IMG/VR virus record: IMGVR_UViG_3300005613_000009
Span: 55,982 to 119,981 of that record
Source: a virus
DNA: 64,000 bases
Reading direction: 5' to 3' (one strand)
In this document: positions 15,693 through 46,721 of the stretch, one piece after another
Layout of the letters: every line of letters starts with the position of its first letter
How positions within the stretch are numbered: the stretch's first letter is position 1
Translations under genes and position numbers: made by a program
Notes under the pieces: model-generated
Database searches by the model: none
Told to the model about the DNA's origin: nothing
What the model saw: only the letters and a program-made list of their open reading frames with translations

Positions 15693-15893
15693 CTATTCTT
15701 CAATTAACTGTATGCGACGATTGTCAAACCATTCTGGATCAACCTCGCAATCATCTTCTCGTATACCACTTGCAGCTTCAATATAATGTTGCCCGTTAAA
15801 ATATCCCCGATAGATATATTCGTTAGGCTTCTTTTGAATTTTCGATTTTGACTTGAACCGTTGGCCGTATTTCATTGTTATCATCACTGTCAC
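15693..15893 (-). CDS. hypothetical protein
   Basis: GAGGTG RBS. Confidence 0.5.
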   Translation of the reverse strand: MTVMITMKYGQRFKSKSKIQKKPNEYIYRGYFNGQHYIEAASGIREDDCEVDPEWFDNRRIQLIEE

Positions 15894-16018
15894 CTCACAA
15901 CTTTAAATTCTTTCGCTATTGTTAGCCTCTTTTTTACGTCCGTTCCTATGTCTACCCCCCAACAATTTACAACTCACTCAGCCTTCAAGAAACCAACCCC
16001 CCCTCAGAACAGCCCTCA

Positions 16019-16531
16019 TCAGAACAGCCCCCGGCAGGGAAGCCCCCGGCAGGGCCATACCCCGTATCGCTTCGCCGTCTCTTTCGCCACTAATGCACTC
16101 GACCCAAAAAATTGCGGCTGCGTCGGATCAAATGGCAACATCTGCATCTTCATCTTCTGTGCGCCATCGCTGCCACGCAACTTCTCGATAAGAATGCCAC
16201 CCGCTGCAGGCGGTAGCCACCAGCCACGCCTGAATACGCTGTTTTGGCCATCTGTTCCACGTGGAACCCAGGCGGGTCGTTTGGTATGGTACTCAAACCC
16301 CGCGGCCTGTAGCTGCCTCCTGGTGATTATGTGGTTGTCTACCTGTCTTTGGTGGCGGATACCGTCCAACCGCTTGACTTCCGACTCGTGGATAGCCGGT
16401 GCCCTGCTGAAATGCTCGACTTCGATCTGCTCCGCCTTGAGAATCGCGTGGATCCTTAGTGGTTGTACGCCGTAGCGCCTCGACAACTCTTCGATCGTGT
16501 AATACTCCCCTAATTTCATCGGCATAGACAT
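16019..16531 (-). CDS. protein with an N-terminal excisionase-like helix-turn-helix
   Basis: YYTIEELSRRYGV motif; AAGGAGG RBS downstream of a repeat promoter. Confidence 0.6.
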   Translation of the reverse strand: MSMPMKLGEYYTIEELSRRYGVQPLRIHAILKAEQIEVEHFSRAPAIHESEVKRLDGIRHQRQVDNHIITRRQLQAAGFEYHTKRPAWVPRGTDGQNSVFRRGWWLPPAAGGILIEKLRGSDGAQKMKMQMLPFDPTQPQFFGSSALVAKETAKRYGVWPCRGLPCRGLF

Positions 16532-18469: not shown

Positions 18470-18486
18470 GATAATCCCCCATTCTC

Positions 18487-18547
18487 AATTAGACTCAATT
18501 CAGCTTAATTAGACTCAATTCAGCTTAATTAGACTCAATTAAGCTTA
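18487..18547. repeat. 20-bp tandem repeat AATTAGACTCAATTCAGCTT x3
   Basis: Seen directly, just upstream of the DUF4326 gene. Confidence 0.85.
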
Positions 18548-19514
18548 CTTTTAATAATATAGATCAATCCTTCCCCATCTGGATCAATCTTTTGGCTTTT
18601 TGTCGTGTTTTCTCCAGTCTTTTAGGCGTGTTAAGATTCCGAATGTCTCTGACCGGGTTTCTTTGCATTGCGCTCAGTCTTGAAAAATGTCGATCTTTTC
18701 AAGCGTCTGCCAGGGGGGCACTGTCGATCTTTAACGGGTCTTGAAGACTCTCAAAAACTGTGGTCGTCCTACCTCAAAGAACTACTTCGATTTATCCCAT
18801 CTGGCCTCATGCCGTCAAGGTCCCAGGCTTGCATCATGTCAGCCTGGGCGCTTCGTGCCATACTCACTATGATATGTTGCATATTTGGTGCCACAATAAT
18901 CAAGCCCATTTGGTATCAATCCAGCACAATTAAGCGTATTTACATGAAAGAGGTGGTGTGTATTTTTTGCAAGGGTGTGGCTTTTTCGATACGCTGTTTT
19001 ATTGTGCAATATCAATCGCTTACGGTGCTGTGGCGATAAAGCCACAATGTGGGATAGTCAGTTTTCAGCTGTCTTTTTTTTGACTTTTTTTTAACTGGAA
19101 ATTCCTTCGCTGCGCCCTTTGCAGCGCCCTCGCCTTGCAAAGCGGGCGAAATGGCAACGCCTGAAATTGATCTTAGTATTTCATTCTCCCCTGGCGTAAA
19201 TAACAAGGCTGAGGGTAAAACGAAACAAACGGACTGAAATAATGACAGAGGGGATAGGCAGACACGAGCTAAGACAAGGCAGTCGAAAATGAGAAAAAAA
19301 TCGTCGTCTGTCTTTGAAAACAGAGATTGTTCCGGCTCTGCGCTAGCGTAACGCAGAGCCTAAATAAGAAAACCCCGCTAAGCGTTTGTCTGCCTAACAG
19401 GGTCTGGGGGATTACTTTTTTATTAAAAAAAAGCGCAAGAACTCCAGCAGCTCTACTCTGCGTCATAACCCCAGTTAGAGTTCCAGGGTTATCAAGGAGT
19501 TCCTGCGCGAAAGA

Positions 19515-19703
19515 TTATGCCTCGCCAGCCAACACATCCGCTACTTCACAGATTATGTCGGCCACTCTCCCGTTGCAGGGGAAATCCTTCCCAGCTATCT
19601 GCAACGGGAATTTCTTTTGGTCCCAAGTCTGAGGACCGAATTCAACCGGCCCTCCAGTTTCCAAGAGAAGCTCTATCGCTTCCCTAAACTTTTCTTTATT
19701 CAT
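19515..19703 (-). CDS. 62-aa hypothetical cassette protein
   Basis: GAGGGGG RBS after a repeat promoter. Confidence 0.7.
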   Translation of the reverse strand: MNKEKFREAIELLLETGGPVEFGPQTWDQKKFPLQIAGKDFPCNGRVADIICEVADVLAGEA

Positions 19704-19802
19704 CTCAATTCCCCCTCGTGTTAAGAGTTAATGTTTTATTTTCACAAAAAAACAAATAAAGAAAACAAAAAGCCCGGTTCACGCTGCCAAGTTTTCCCTG
19801 GC

Positions 19803-19849
19803 AAAAAAAAAGACCACCTGCCATAAGGTTCTAAACAGGCAGATGGTCT
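19803..19849 (-). terminator. intrinsic terminator
   Basis: GACCATCTGCC/GGCAGGTGGTC stem followed by a 9-U tract. Confidence 0.85.
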
Positions 19850-20255
19850 TAAAATTTCCGGGCTCTGTACCCCTCTAATCGGGAGACGCTGTCCACACAC
19901 CCGGCGATGTGGGAGCCATGCTCGAACCGGTTACCCTACATCCGGAAGGTATTCCATTCCCATACAGGTTATTCGAGCTTTCCCTGTATAGTCCCGTGGA
20001 AGGATGTACTGGCAGGTCCACGGATTTTCGATGGGTGATTTCTCGGTAACGGGGCCGCCATCGACCGGATATCCTCCCGTCTTGCTACCAGTTGCGATTT
20101 TTCACGCAACTCCCGACTTTTCTTTCGACGCCGGGCATCCCCGATTAATCGCTGGGTTGCGCATGAACAGGTACTGCGGGGCCTTTCCCTGTTCCCCTTG
20201 ATCTCCAGCTGCCACTGGAGAGATCTTTGAGAGACGATCTTTTCATCGCCCCTCA
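19803..20255 (-). ncRNA. candidate large structured ncRNA (~430 nt) with its own promoter and terminator
   Basis: At least 6 local hairpins, a 13-bp long-range helix and a 7-bp pseudoknot; GC-richer than the flanks; no credible ORF. Confidence 0.6.
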
Positions 20256-20299
20256 AATCTTATATACTATTTATTTCACAAAAAAACAAATAAAAAAAT

Positions 20300-20339
20300 A
20301 AAAAAAGCCCGGTGAACGTGTGCCGGGTTCACCGGGCCT
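20300..20339 (-). terminator. terminator, near-identical to the copy at 20577-20616
   Basis: GCCCGGTGAA/TTCACCGGGC stem plus U tract, abutting a repeat promoter. Confidence 0.85.
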
Positions 20340-20345
20340 AGTTAA

Positions 20346-20519
20346 CTAAAATGGAATTTTATCTTCGAACATTGATGTTTCGACAACTGCATTGTCAAGA
20401 AACTGAACAATGCAATTATCTAAATTCAATCCGACAAGCTCCAGTTCTTCAAGCTCGTCGGCATAGAATATATCCGCATTTCCTATTGAGTCGATGACTA
20501 TAATCTGTTTATCAACCAT
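20346..20519 (-). CDS. 57-aa acidic protein ending ...EDKIPF; paralog of 21238..21438
   Basis: Read manually; GAGGGGG RBS; IVIDSIGNADIFY vs MIVDSVGSADVFY. Confidence 0.75.
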   Translation of the reverse strand: MVDKQIIVIDSIGNADIFYADELEELELVGLNLDNCIVQFLDNAVVETSMFEDKIPF

Positions 20520-20576: not shown

Positions 20577-20616
20577 AAAAAAAGCCCGGTGAACGTGTGC
20601 CGTATTCACCGGGCCT
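20577..20616 (-). terminator. terminator, near-identical to the copy at 20300-20339
   Basis: GCCCGGTGAA/TTCACCGGGC stem plus U tract. Confidence 0.85.
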
Positions 20617-20901
20617 GGGGGGAAGATTGATAGATAAAACTCATAAGATACATTTTCCTGATTCGATATGCAGGAAGAGAAATTCTTGCAAATGGCCAAT
20701 GAAAATCATGACTTTTCATTTTCTCGGCCTTTTCCCTCGAAAAACGCATCTTGTGGGCTTTACCCCTCCGGATGCAATTCCATCACCCCCTCTCTTAGTT
20801 TAAGGTTATTAAATTATTTTGTTTAATTTCACTAAAAAACAAATAAAAAAATAAAAGCCTGGTTTACGCTGCCGGGTTTCCCCTGGCGAAAATGCAACCT
20901 A

Positions 20902-21237: not shown

Positions 21238-21438
21238 TTAGAACGGAATGATATCTTGATGAAACGGGCTATTGGATCCTATTTCATACTCAGAAGAAAT
21301 ACGTTGGAACTCTTCTTCGTCATAGACATCTATGACGTCATCGTTAAACATGTCGAAAAGTTCCAGATCCTTCAACTCTTCCTCGTAAAAGACATCAGCG
21401 CTCCCAACCGAATCCACGATCATCAACCTATCTTCCAT
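21238..21438 (-). CDS. 66-aa acidic protein ending ...QDIIPF
   Basis: GGGGG RBS; paralog of 20346..20519. Confidence 0.75.
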   Translation of the reverse strand: MEDRLMIVDSVGSADVFYEEELKDLELFDMFNDDVIDVYDEEEFQRISSEYEIGSNSPFHQDIIPF

Positions 21439-26188: not shown

Positions 26189-26325
26189 GGTGTATCCCTC
26201 CTTTCTTTTACAAAAAAAACAGATGAAGAAAGAGAAGGCGTGGTGCTTTGCTCCTTTTCGCACGGCCCCTGGGAAAAATGACCGGCTGTTGACATCGTAA
26301 CGGGATCTATCTTTGAAATTTACAC

Positions 26326-44678: not shown

Positions 44679-46721
44679 TTAAAAAACGAGTTTAATTGTT
44701 CTGGCGATATGCCCTTTCACCTTGCAAATAATATTGTTTCGTTTAGACGAACTAAAACCAAGACCAGATAATTGTTGGTCTGAATACGGAACTTTCATCT
44801 TTCCGCCTAGAGCTTCAAAAACTTTTTTATGTTCAAGAAGTTCTTGTTTTAAAAATTCATTGAAAAATCCATTAGGACTATTATTGTTTATACAATCATT
44901 TAACATGAAAAAATAATGTCGATGTCCGATATTTGATTGTTGATCCCAATAGTTGGGAGAATACATAATAATTGAAATAGGATGAAATTGATTTGTTTGA
45001 ACTCCCCAAATCTTTCTCGATGTCTCGGAATGAGAGAGGGAACTTACTATTTCAAATCCATTATTTTTATCAAATTTTACTTTTGCGACTTCTATCTTTG
45101 CATCTTGTCTAAGCTCTTTATCATACTCAAATTTAAAAATACGACCTTCAAATTCTATCTCAGCCTTAAAACCGCTTCTACCACCTCGATGTTTAAAATT
45201 ATGTACAAAAAAAGTATATATACCTTCAGGCATTCTGTTTATATCTGAATGAACGATATTTTCAACAGCTACATGTACTCCGGGTTGAACTATATCAACA
45301 TCTAACATCCCTGAAGATGGATGAAAGATTCGTTTGTTTCGGTAGTAGATATGATCTTTTTCTGGCTCTATGCAATGAGCGTCAAAATCATTTTTATTGT
45401 CTGCATTTTCATTCCATTGAATTGAAAATCGATGAACACCTTCTACGTTTCCACCAGCAGATTTAACCCTTTGTTTTATCATGCTGTCTGTAATATTGCC
45501 ATTATACGCCCAAGAAAAACTATTGTTCCATTTAAATAGCGTTGGGCTATTTCCCACTTTTGGAGCAATTAAAGAAACAAGATTTGGTTCAAACCGATTC
45601 TCCATAAAAAGTTGAATATCTGTTGTCCTTGGTAAAATCTTGGAGACAAATGTTTTGATAGGGACTTCTTCAACTTTTTTAAATTGTTTTGGGTCCATTG
45701 AAACCTCTTGTTCTAATTCATCAAAGACATTTGAAATCCTTTTTATAGTATCTTTGTTTGCAAACAAAACATTATTAGCCGTAACATCGTCTACTATTGC
45801 AAATCTTCTACCCAAAGATTCCATTAACCCAAGTTCTGCAATGGTTTCTTTTGCTTTTTCTACCATTTTTTTCGAAAAAATCGGCTTTGGCCGTTTGTAG
45901 TTTGTAGGTGCTACAATTTTTTCGTACTTTCTGACAGCCTTGTTTAAATCCATACCATTTGTAACATCTGTTAGAAAAACACCTACAGAATGATTTTTGA
46001 TTCGGCTGATTGCAATTCCAATTTTCATAGAATGTTCCCAACAAAATAGATCCATCTTTTCCGGCATCAGTCCGGAATATTTTCTTTTTAGAATAAGAAG
46101 TTTTTCAAGTTGGGACAGCCATTCTTCGCCTTTATAGAATGATTTTTGAGCGATTAGGTCCAATATAATTTCAATACTTTCTGCAGATATTTCGTCCAAG
46201 GATCGTTTAAATACATTTTTGGTATCCCTATAAACAGCCGTTAAAGAATCTATCGTTTTGTTTGTTGAACCAGATACGAACTTATTTGGAATTTCAAGAT
46301 AAAAATGGCTCCATTCTATAGTTTTTGTGGATCCCTTTTTTTTCTCATAATTATGTTCAGTGCCGAATTTATTCTGCTTTGTAACGAATACGTCTTTGAT
46401 TACGCATTTCTTAATCAATTTTGACAATGCATTTATAACAGGTTGATATTGGGAATTTCCTGTATCAAAATCCCAAATTGTTTTAACCTTACCATCTTCC
46501 ACTACAACAACGTTTCCAACATCTTTGATGAAATGGCGACAACAATGGCAATCATGTTCTCTTCTTTCTCTGAATATTTTATTTGTACCATTCGGAAAAC
46601 TGTTTAAATATGTTGACCACATTTTATCTTTATCAACATCTGCGAGAAACAATGTATTTACGTTTTCTAACATTTTCGCTACGTGCTTTTGCATTAAACT
46701 TCTAAATTCAGCGAATTCCAT
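44679..46721 (-). CDS. large conserved phage protein (HDC.CCR.FI motif)
   Basis: 680-aa ORF; function not recognised. Confidence 0.75.
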   Translation of the reverse strand: MEFAEFRSLMQKHVAKMLENVNTLFLADVDKDKMWSTYLNSFPNGTNKIFRERREHDCHCCRHFIKDVGNVVVVEDGKVKTIWDFDTGNSQYQPVINALSKLIKKCVIKDVFVTKQNKFGTEHNYEKKKGSTKTIEWSHFYLEIPNKFVSGSTNKTIDSLTAVYRDTKNVFKRSLDEISAESIEIILDLIAQKSFYKGEEWLSQLEKLLILKRKYSGLMPEKMDLFCWEHSMKIGIAISRIKNHSVGVFLTDVTNGMDLNKAVRKYEKIVAPTNYKRPKPIFSKKMVEKAKETIAELGLMESLGRRFAIVDDVTANNVLFANKDTIKRISNVFDELEQEVSMDPKQFKKVEEVPIKTFVSKILPRTTDIQLFMENRFEPNLVSLIAPKVGNSPTLFKWNNSFSWAYNGNITDSMIKQRVKSAGGNVEGVHRFSIQWNENADNKNDFDAHCIEPEKDHIYYRNKRIFHPSSGMLDVDIVQPGVHVAVENIVHSDINRMPEGIYTFFVHNFKHRGGRSGFKAEIEFEGRIFKFEYDKELRQDAKIEVAKVKFDKNNGFEIVSSLSHSETSRKIWGVQTNQFHPISIIMYSPNYWDQQSNIGHRHYFFMLNDCINNNSPNGFFNEFLKQELLEHKKVFEALGGKMKVPYSDQQLSGLGFSSSKRNNIICKVKGHIARTIKLVF

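Follow-up and report, generated by a model that had tools for sequence, protein, structure and literature searches.

To our knowledge, no function is known for any of the large structured phage RNAs, which include ROOL, GOLLD and an increasing number of unnamed ones. ROOL has a length of approximately 580 nt. Both ROOL and GOLLD are large ornate RNAs of phages and prophages that form nanocages in cryo-EM, and GOLLD often exceeds 800 nt (PMC12286853). They are often encoded close to tRNA islands (PMC12286853). The candidate non-coding RNA analyzed here (positions 19803-20266, minus strand) is comparable to them in several respects, as predicted from its sequence. It is large, GC-enriched and heavily folded, and it would represent a stand-alone phage gene with no known protein partner. 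With approximately 450-460 nt including the terminator, it is shorter than both GOLLD and ROOL. Unlike these RNAs, it lies approximately 17 kb from the nearest tRNA gene and is without any family of relatives in the databases searched.

Two further points of comparison concern the arrangement and the base composition of the locus. Large virulent Bacillus phages such as SPO1 carry host-takeover modules with many small genes, each having a strong promoter and a terminator. Around the candidate RNA, short cassettes likewise follow one another, each having a promoter, a strong ribosome binding site (RBS) and a terminator. This region differs from the SPO1 modules in its promoter, which is not a clear sigma-70 consensus, and in one slot that would hold an RNA instead of a protein. 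In the GC-IGR approach of the Breaker laboratory, ncRNA candidates are reportedly detected as extended intergenic stretches of high GC content within AT-rich genomes, and we know of no published candidate of this kind that was accepted without covariation across homologues. The present locus has this signature, namely a long ORF-free interval of 53% GC within a genome of 36% GC. The signature is a discovery criterion rather than a family, and the three copies of the candidate RNA are 98-100% identical and contain no covarying pairs.

Genomic setting of the locus

The analyzed window, i.e., the whole stretch of 64,000 nucleotides, makes up the rightmost 64 kb of a 119,981-bp IMG/VR virus record with a CheckV completeness of 81% and a GC content of 36% (0.363). 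Genes for the terminase, the portal and the major head protein are present in the record, which is that of a tailed phage. Other genes encode helicases, a primase, a single-stranded DNA-binding protein (SSB), four tRNAs and a radical-SAM enzyme. In a search based on the large terminase (TerL), the best relative in IMG/VR was only about 40% identical, and for the 474-aa DUF4326 protein adjoining the locus zero relatives were found among 5.8 billion protein clusters. The lineage is regarded as an orphan because no IMG/VR protein exceeds approximately 40% identity to TerL and because the 474-aa protein is without relatives. The phage is uncultured, has a size of about 120-150 kb and is without close relatives.

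A 680-aa protein (44679-46721, minus strand) was assigned to PHROG 1735 and has no Pfam match. Proteins with 50-56% identity to it are encoded in many IMG/VR records as well as in genomes of Bacillota, Treponema and others. Being widespread and widely exchanged, it is therefore a poor marker of phage kinship. A GC-rich island (0.52-0.59) was observed at 15861-16531, where long ORFs of 170 aa (minus strand) and 204 aa (plus strand) overlap. The 170-aa ORF has no family match, and a different frame gives a higher codon score than its own.

Between 19.3 and 22.4 kb, very short genes are framed by alternating promoters and terminators. Two of the small proteins encoded here, of 57 aa (20346-20519, minus strand) and 66 aa (21238-21438, minus strand), are paralogous with an identity of 36%, and no homologues were found beyond the strains of the phage under study. 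Their ends (...DKIPF and ...DIIPF) are similar to the DDDIPF tail of the phage SSB (21937-22374, minus strand). From this similarity, the paralogs may mimic the C-terminal tip of SSB that recruits host replication and repair proteins.

The neighboring cassette at 20585-20856 (minus strand) is also without a convincing gene and has a fold z-score of -3.5. It consists of a promoter copy, a strong RBS and a 6-codon ORF, followed by a 47-aa ORF without RBS, and may be a second RNA or micro-peptide cassette. On the other side, the 62-aa gene is separated from the 474-aa DUF4326 gene by approximately 1 kb (18470-19514, minus strand) without a long minus-strand ORF. Strong hairpins and terminators are clustered in this interval, and z-scores as low as -7 were obtained for 19321-19560. 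At 18484-18550, immediately upstream of the 474-aa gene, there are 5-6 tandem repeats of 10/20 nt (CTCAATTAGA/CTCAATTCAG type); they could be iterons, origin or operator sites.

Promoter and terminator of the cassette

The candidate RNA is preceded by a shared promoter block (20267-20303, minus strand) that consists of a T-tract and the core ATTTGTTTTTTTGTGAAA at 20291-20274. The core is without mismatches and thus a perfect copy of the repeat promoter that had been reported in a preliminary description of this DNA. The corresponding repeat family (D1) has 10 copies within 14-27 kb. The motif, a T-tract followed by AT(T/C)TGTTTTTTTGTGAAA, was identified in approximately 18 minus-strand copies genome-wide. 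Each copy lies before a gene, approximately 7-50 nt upstream of the RBS (e.g., at the window positions 159, 1451, 8558, 16610, 19757, 20291, 20571, 20844, 24522, 25110, 26224, 28821 and 53211, minus strand). The motif is not an obvious sigma-70 consensus and may be recognized by a phage-specific factor. At position 26224 the RBS follows after about 7 nt, which suggests that the motif itself probably extends to the transcript start.

The cargo begins with the specific sequence TATATAAG (20259-20266, minus strand), and directly upstream of it the homology with the sister-strain contig L233 breaks off. The element could be a -10 element or the transcript start, so that a start of transcription at 20259-20266 is possible.

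At the 3′-end, the strong terminator of the preliminary description was found again as the cargo's own intrinsic terminator (19803-19849, minus strand). It comprises a 12-bp stem (19849-19811), a 15-nt loop and a run of U, with a pair probability of 1.00. A second, weaker terminator-like hairpin of repeat family D5 follows at 19770-19802 (minus strand). This hairpin is part of the shared cassette frame, and the similarity to the sister strains resumes here.

Coding potential

As noted earlier, no convincing ORF is present in the stretch. Stops interrupt each of the minus-strand frames, all three of which are thus broken, and the ATG-led frame starting at 20246 ends after 33 codons. The longest ORF (19969-20256) is TTG-started and encodes a basic protein of 95 aa. 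For this protein no relative was detected by word search, nor by HMMER against 1.84 billion representative proteins. The six read-through frames gave no Pfam match and one PHROGs match at chance level, and a pseudogene of a known family was therefore rejected. In addition, no gene was called on the RNA stretch in the annotation of the ENA contig L234.

The codon scores of the ORFs in the stretch were at noise (0.05 or lower) and showed no frame preference, compared to 0.17-0.33 in frame for the neighboring genes of 57-100 aa; this test is weak for GC-rich DNA, since the genuine SSB gene scores only 0.07. The SD-like sequence GAGGGG is located 2 nt from the ATG at 20246. The spacer length in the other cassettes is 4-7 nt.

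Predicted secondary structure

The candidate RNA has a GC content of approximately 0.53, compared to 0.36-0.45 in the adjacent sequence, in line with the GC enrichment already described. All structural elements listed in the preliminary description were recovered, either in place or displaced by a few bases. The minimum free energy (MFE) structure of the RNA has a predicted energy of -180.7 kcal/mol. The claim of dense local pairing holds for five hairpins (20221-20202, 20194-20165, 20134-20113, 20111-20090 and 19991-19960), which are part of the MFE structure with probabilities of 0.91-0.99. For the sixth proposed helix, CCGTGGA/TCCACGG, the arms are present, but they are paired otherwise in the MFE structure.

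At the 5′-end, a hairpin of 10 bp (GAGGGGCGAU/AUCGUCUCUC; 20229-20254, minus strand) was predicted with a pair probability of 1.00 and -14.1 kcal/mol. Both the ATG that opens the 33-codon frame and the SD-like GAGGGG are buried in it. Further downstream, repeat hairpin A (20165-20194, minus strand) has an ACAGG/CCUGU stem and a loop beginning with GAAAG (probability 0.94). The underlying motif ACAGGGAAAG..CCTGT occurs twice in the 64 kb (0.01 expected), and both occurrences are located in the candidate RNA. The second one, repeat hairpin B (19960-19991), is included in a closed multi-branch domain at 19924-20019 (minus strand) with helix probabilities of 0.91-0.97.

The stability of the fold was compared with dinucleotide shuffles. 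For the core (19851-20254) a z-score of -3.07 was obtained, and none of 100 shuffles was as stable. The reverse complement of the core reached a z-score of -1.30, and the signal is therefore strand-specific. The whole RNA including the terminator has a z-score of -4.37, again with 0 of 100 shuffles as stable. GC-rich coding controls of the same phage (SSB and the 16-kb region) ranged from +1.3 to -2.1. The number of perfect Watson-Crick helices of at least 7 bp was 12, compared to 3.9 +/- 1.8 in shuffled sequences, and none of 60 shuffles reached 12. Thus, the folding of the candidate RNA as a whole is above chance. In 240-nt windows within the RNA body the z-scores are only -1.5 to -2.4, and the extreme values of the region belong to windows that hold a terminator. 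The tetranucleotide GAAA is enriched as well (9 occurrences, 3.8 expected).

The long-range fold is a prediction. The proposed 13-bp helix between 20135-20147 and 19876-19889 (minus strand) is part of the predicted fold, with one bulge, one G-U pair and probabilities of 0.87-0.98. Its arms are thus present, but the helix lies within chance, as a helix of 13-14 bp spanning more than 150 nt was found in 15% of the shuffles. A 7-bp pseudoknot had also been proposed. Its 3′ arm CAUCGCC (19903-19909, minus strand) is complementary to GGCGAUG at 20244-20250 (duplex -13.3 kcal/mol) and invariant in all three copies of the RNA, but complementarity of this length is expected several times by chance. 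Moreover, the 5′ arm of the pseudoknot is shared with the local 10-bp hairpin at the 5′-end, which is similarly stable (-14.1 vs. -13.3 kcal/mol) and has a probability of 1.00. The pseudoknot competes with this hairpin.

Comparison with known RNA families

For the identification of known RNA families, cmscan was used with Rfam 15. No family matched the candidate RNA at the gathering score or at E<=10, an outcome that the preliminary description had named as support for novelty. At the gathering score, the whole window yielded the 4 tRNAs located elsewhere and no other match. Using permissive filters and E<=10, five chance-level matches of 15-20 bits to miRNA, snoRNA and sRNA models were obtained for the region 19650-20400. 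GOLLD, ROOL, OLE, HEARO, raiA and every other Rfam 15 family gave no match near the gathering threshold. A divergent member of the GOLLD or ROOL family, which had been considered, is unsupported, since neither of the two Rfam models matches even at E<=10.

Several resemblances to other RNAs were followed up individually. For tmRNA, ARAGORN reported none in the window (and neither a tRNA nor a tmRNA in the candidate RNA), no tmRNA model matched at E<=10, and no T arm of 5 bp with a 7-nt loop adjoining CAUCGCC could be recognized by eye. In bacterial RNase P RNA, the conserved P4 strands, one beginning with GAGGAAAGUCC and the other being ACAGAANCCGGCUUA, pair with each other. The look-alikes in the candidate RNA, AGGGAAAGGCC and ACAGAGCCCGG, cannot pair mutually as judged by eye, and no RNase P model matched at E<=10. 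The sequence GAUUAGAGGGGUAC bears a loose resemblance to a T-box motif; this likeness was seen by eye only, and neither a T-box nor a riboswitch model matched at E<=10. The resemblances to a tmRNA end, to RNase P P4 and to a T-box were rejected because of the lack of model support.

An anticodon-less tRNA-shaped scaffold was discarded as well, given that the 7-bp acceptor-like pairing GGCGAUG/CAUCGCC has no adjoining T or D arm. A CsrA-type GGA sponge was rejected, since the GGA motif is not enriched (15 vs. 12.8) and AGGA shows a depletion. The same applies to a guide or template RNA of a retron, DGR or TnpB/IscB system, as neither RVT_1 (PF00078) nor the TnpB-type zinc ribbon PF07282 was found in the 120-kb record (about 81% complete).

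Search for relatives

The candidate RNA had no blastn match in phage GenBank records and plasmids, and nothing beyond the promoter repeat recurs in the phage's own genome. The 30 IMG/VR records that share the 680-aa protein gave chance matches only. Three of these 30 were searched as a whole using nhmmer and blastn with a word size of 7; no match to the RNA was detected and the promoter motif was absent, too. Two 20-mer scans of IMG/VR were blank, and 5 + 401 Bacillota genomes gave only short matches at chance level. A scan of JGI metagenomes for the double-hairpin pattern resulted in one true match, contig L241; the five remaining matches came from CRISPR arrays and repeat proteins. Furthermore, four short contigs from a single ENA assembly (ERZ27256772) were identified through a lookup of the small proteins encoded in the flanks.

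Strain variants and exchange of cargo

The strain variants and the exchange of cargo between strains are the new evidence presented here. The JGI contig L241 was found to originate from the same phage (99.5% identical), and its RNA differs at one base near the contig end. In contig L234 the RNA is 98% identical and the downstream 62-aa gene is kept, with a different gene upstream. Nine differences were found between the RNA of L234 and that of the window, comprising six transitions together with a 2-nt and a 3-nt deletion. All of them are located in a variable patch at 20070-20117 (minus strand) that spans three adjacent hairpins. Over the first 145 nt, which include the 33-codon frame, the three copies show no difference.

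The preliminary description would not stand if homologues conserved a reading frame. In the one diverged copy, L234, the 2-nt deletion moves the 95-aa ORF into another frame; therefore no reading frame is conserved. The predicted fold of L234 is the same helix for helix, with -178.1 kcal/mol compared to -180.7 kcal/mol. In the stems, one G-U pair is changed to G-C, one U-A pair is changed to U-G and one loop-closing pair is lost. Over the three copies, which are 98-100% identical, no two-sided and two one-sided compatible base-pair changes were counted. Simulated sets of mutations of the same kind in the same patch changed the predicted energy by +7.7 +/- 3.8 kcal/mol on average, compared to the observed +2.6 kcal/mol; 10.5% of them were equally mild, which is not significant. 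As support for the modeled fold, the mildness of the L234 changes is thus suggestive only.

In contig L233 (ENA ERZ27256772, k141_1048508), the flanks are approximately 7% diverged. The 57-aa gene, the terminator and the promoter block are kept on one side, and a terminator, a promoter and the 62-aa gene on the other. Between them, an unrelated sequence of about 140 nt takes the place of approximately 470-480 nt. The match of L233 to the window extends down to 20267 and that of a second contig, L235 (ENA k141_1097651), down to 20270; the alignment of L233 resumes from 19785, with a short further match to about 19796. Hence, the similarity between the strains breaks just after GTGAAAT(N)AAATAG, i.e., at about the expected transcription start, and resumes in the shared terminator. 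It follows that the two blocks frame exchangeable cargo and that the candidate RNA is one such cargo. The cassette slot postulated earlier is strongly supported by these sister strains, which carry other cargo between the same promoter and terminator blocks. Since the RNA is absent from L233 with the same flanks, it is dispensable. Both L233 and L234 end at 19354, which suggests that strain variation starts there.

The cargo of L233 (L233:189-328, 140 nt) occupies the slot of window positions 20266-19786. By eye, its 3′ half corresponds to the top half of a tRNA without the anticodon arm. It comprises an acceptor TTGACCAG/CTGGCCAA with one mismatch, a D arm of 3 bp (GCT-AATGGT-AGC) and a T arm (GCAAG-TTCGATT-CTTGC). 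The 140-nt cargo was called by neither ARAGORN nor the Rfam tRNA model. In L235, the 57-aa gene is followed by an ORF of approximately 53 aa (2586-2750) that is Cys-rich with CxxC motifs, and another promoter copy drives a GC-rich cargo that is not found in the window (L235:2800-3001).

Discussion

The locus is best explained by a functional, separately transcribed gene for a structured ncRNA of approximately 450 nt, carried as accessory cargo in a phage slot. The probability of this reading is estimated to be slightly above one half (roughly 0.55). The stretch has its own promoter and terminator and contains no conserved reading frame, which is the generic criterion for an ncRNA gene. The interpretation as an ncRNA gene given in the preliminary description is therefore retained as far as it relies on the lack of an Rfam match, of a conserved frame and of a protein homologue. 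The pseudoknot and the long-range helix lack statistical support, and these two features and the membership in GOLLD/ROOL are not carried over. Overall, the candidate is a plausible orphan phage ncRNA.

Alternatively, the stretch could be inert filler, i.e., GC-rich foreign or decayed DNA that was trapped between the promoter block and the terminators by cassette-shuffling recombination and that is maybe transcribed without a selected function. Such an origin would agree with an orphan sequence of foreign GC content that is missing from a sister strain with the same flanks, with long-range features within chance and with the lack of covariation among near-identical copies. It would not explain why helix density and strand-specific stability exceed those of dinucleotide shuffles, why the cargo has its own strong terminator on top of the shared one, or why it contains a duplicated hairpin motif that is found nowhere else in the 64 kb. 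Moreover, no remnant of a protein family was present in the six frames, and two strain backgrounds that differ in the upstream gene have both retained this cargo. We therefore consider inert filler unlikely.

A small protein, either the 33-aa peptide from the ATG at 20246 or the basic 95-aa protein, with an RNA structure that is incidental or regulatory, is clearly more improbable. For the shorter frame, the SD-like sequence just before the ATG and the identity of the first 145 nt in the three copies can be put forward, and homologues of very small phage proteins are often missing. However, the spacing of only 2 nt is shorter than in the other cassettes, the SD-like sequence and the ATG are both enclosed in the 5′ hairpin, and a 33-codon ORF would leave approximately 350 nt of structured 3′ RNA before the terminator unexplained. 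The longer frame is shifted in L234. Neither the protein search (0 matches) nor the codon scores, which are without frame preference, point to a protein. The location of a terminator-ended stretch upstream of a gene on the same strand, together with the loosely T-box-like GAUUAGAGGGGUAC, would also fit a cis-acting leader, i.e., a riboswitch or attenuator by which read-through into the 62-aa gene downstream is controlled. The RNA is separated from this gene by two terminators and a full promoter copy with its own RBS, though, no model of such an element matched, and in L233 the same downstream gene is served without the candidate RNA, so that a leader is extremely unlikely.

The shared promoter block ends at about the position where a start of transcription would be expected, and the cargo would contribute the transcript along with a terminator of its own. 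Cargo would be exchanged between strains by recombination at these repeated blocks of promoter and terminator. The RNA might work in trans during host takeover, binding protein in its folded state as a decoy or scaffold, with the two identical ACAGG-GAAAG hairpins as candidate binding sites. Such a role is favored here because the promoter type and the neighborhood are common to very small genes next to SSB, because the duplicated hairpin with its ACAGG stem and GAAAG-led loop is absent elsewhere in the window, and because the alternative cargo of L233 resembles the top half of a tRNA. This mechanism is an inference and rather doubtful. Early expression as an RNA effector, as proposed in the preliminary description, could be no more than conjectured, and transcription of the locus as such would be expected from its promoter and terminator.

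A further-reaching proposal, which we regard as quite doubtful, is that the candidate would be the first representative of a novel class of large RNA effectors in phages, transcribed from the phage's own promoter type and interchangeable with the tRNA-like RNA of L233. Both RNAs might then engage the same host target, e.g., an RNA-binding defense or tRNA-handling protein, and the promoter-terminator slots would serve in general to exchange counter-measures consisting of RNA or protein.

If the stretch is filler, the locus calls for caution, since GC-rich, ORF-free and well-folding cassettes in AT-rich phages would be insufficient alone to call a functional RNA. The main value of the locus is the natural swap of cargo between strains. 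In near-identical strains, the same expression slot holds a 450-nt RNA, a 140-nt tRNA-like RNA or a small protein, which amounts to a natural experiment. With such natural cargo variants in one slot, isogenic comparisons could therefore reveal the roles of large structured phage RNAs. If the RNA is real, it would represent a new class and would show that RNA genes are exchanged as accessory cargo, just as protein-coding morons and anti-defense genes are.
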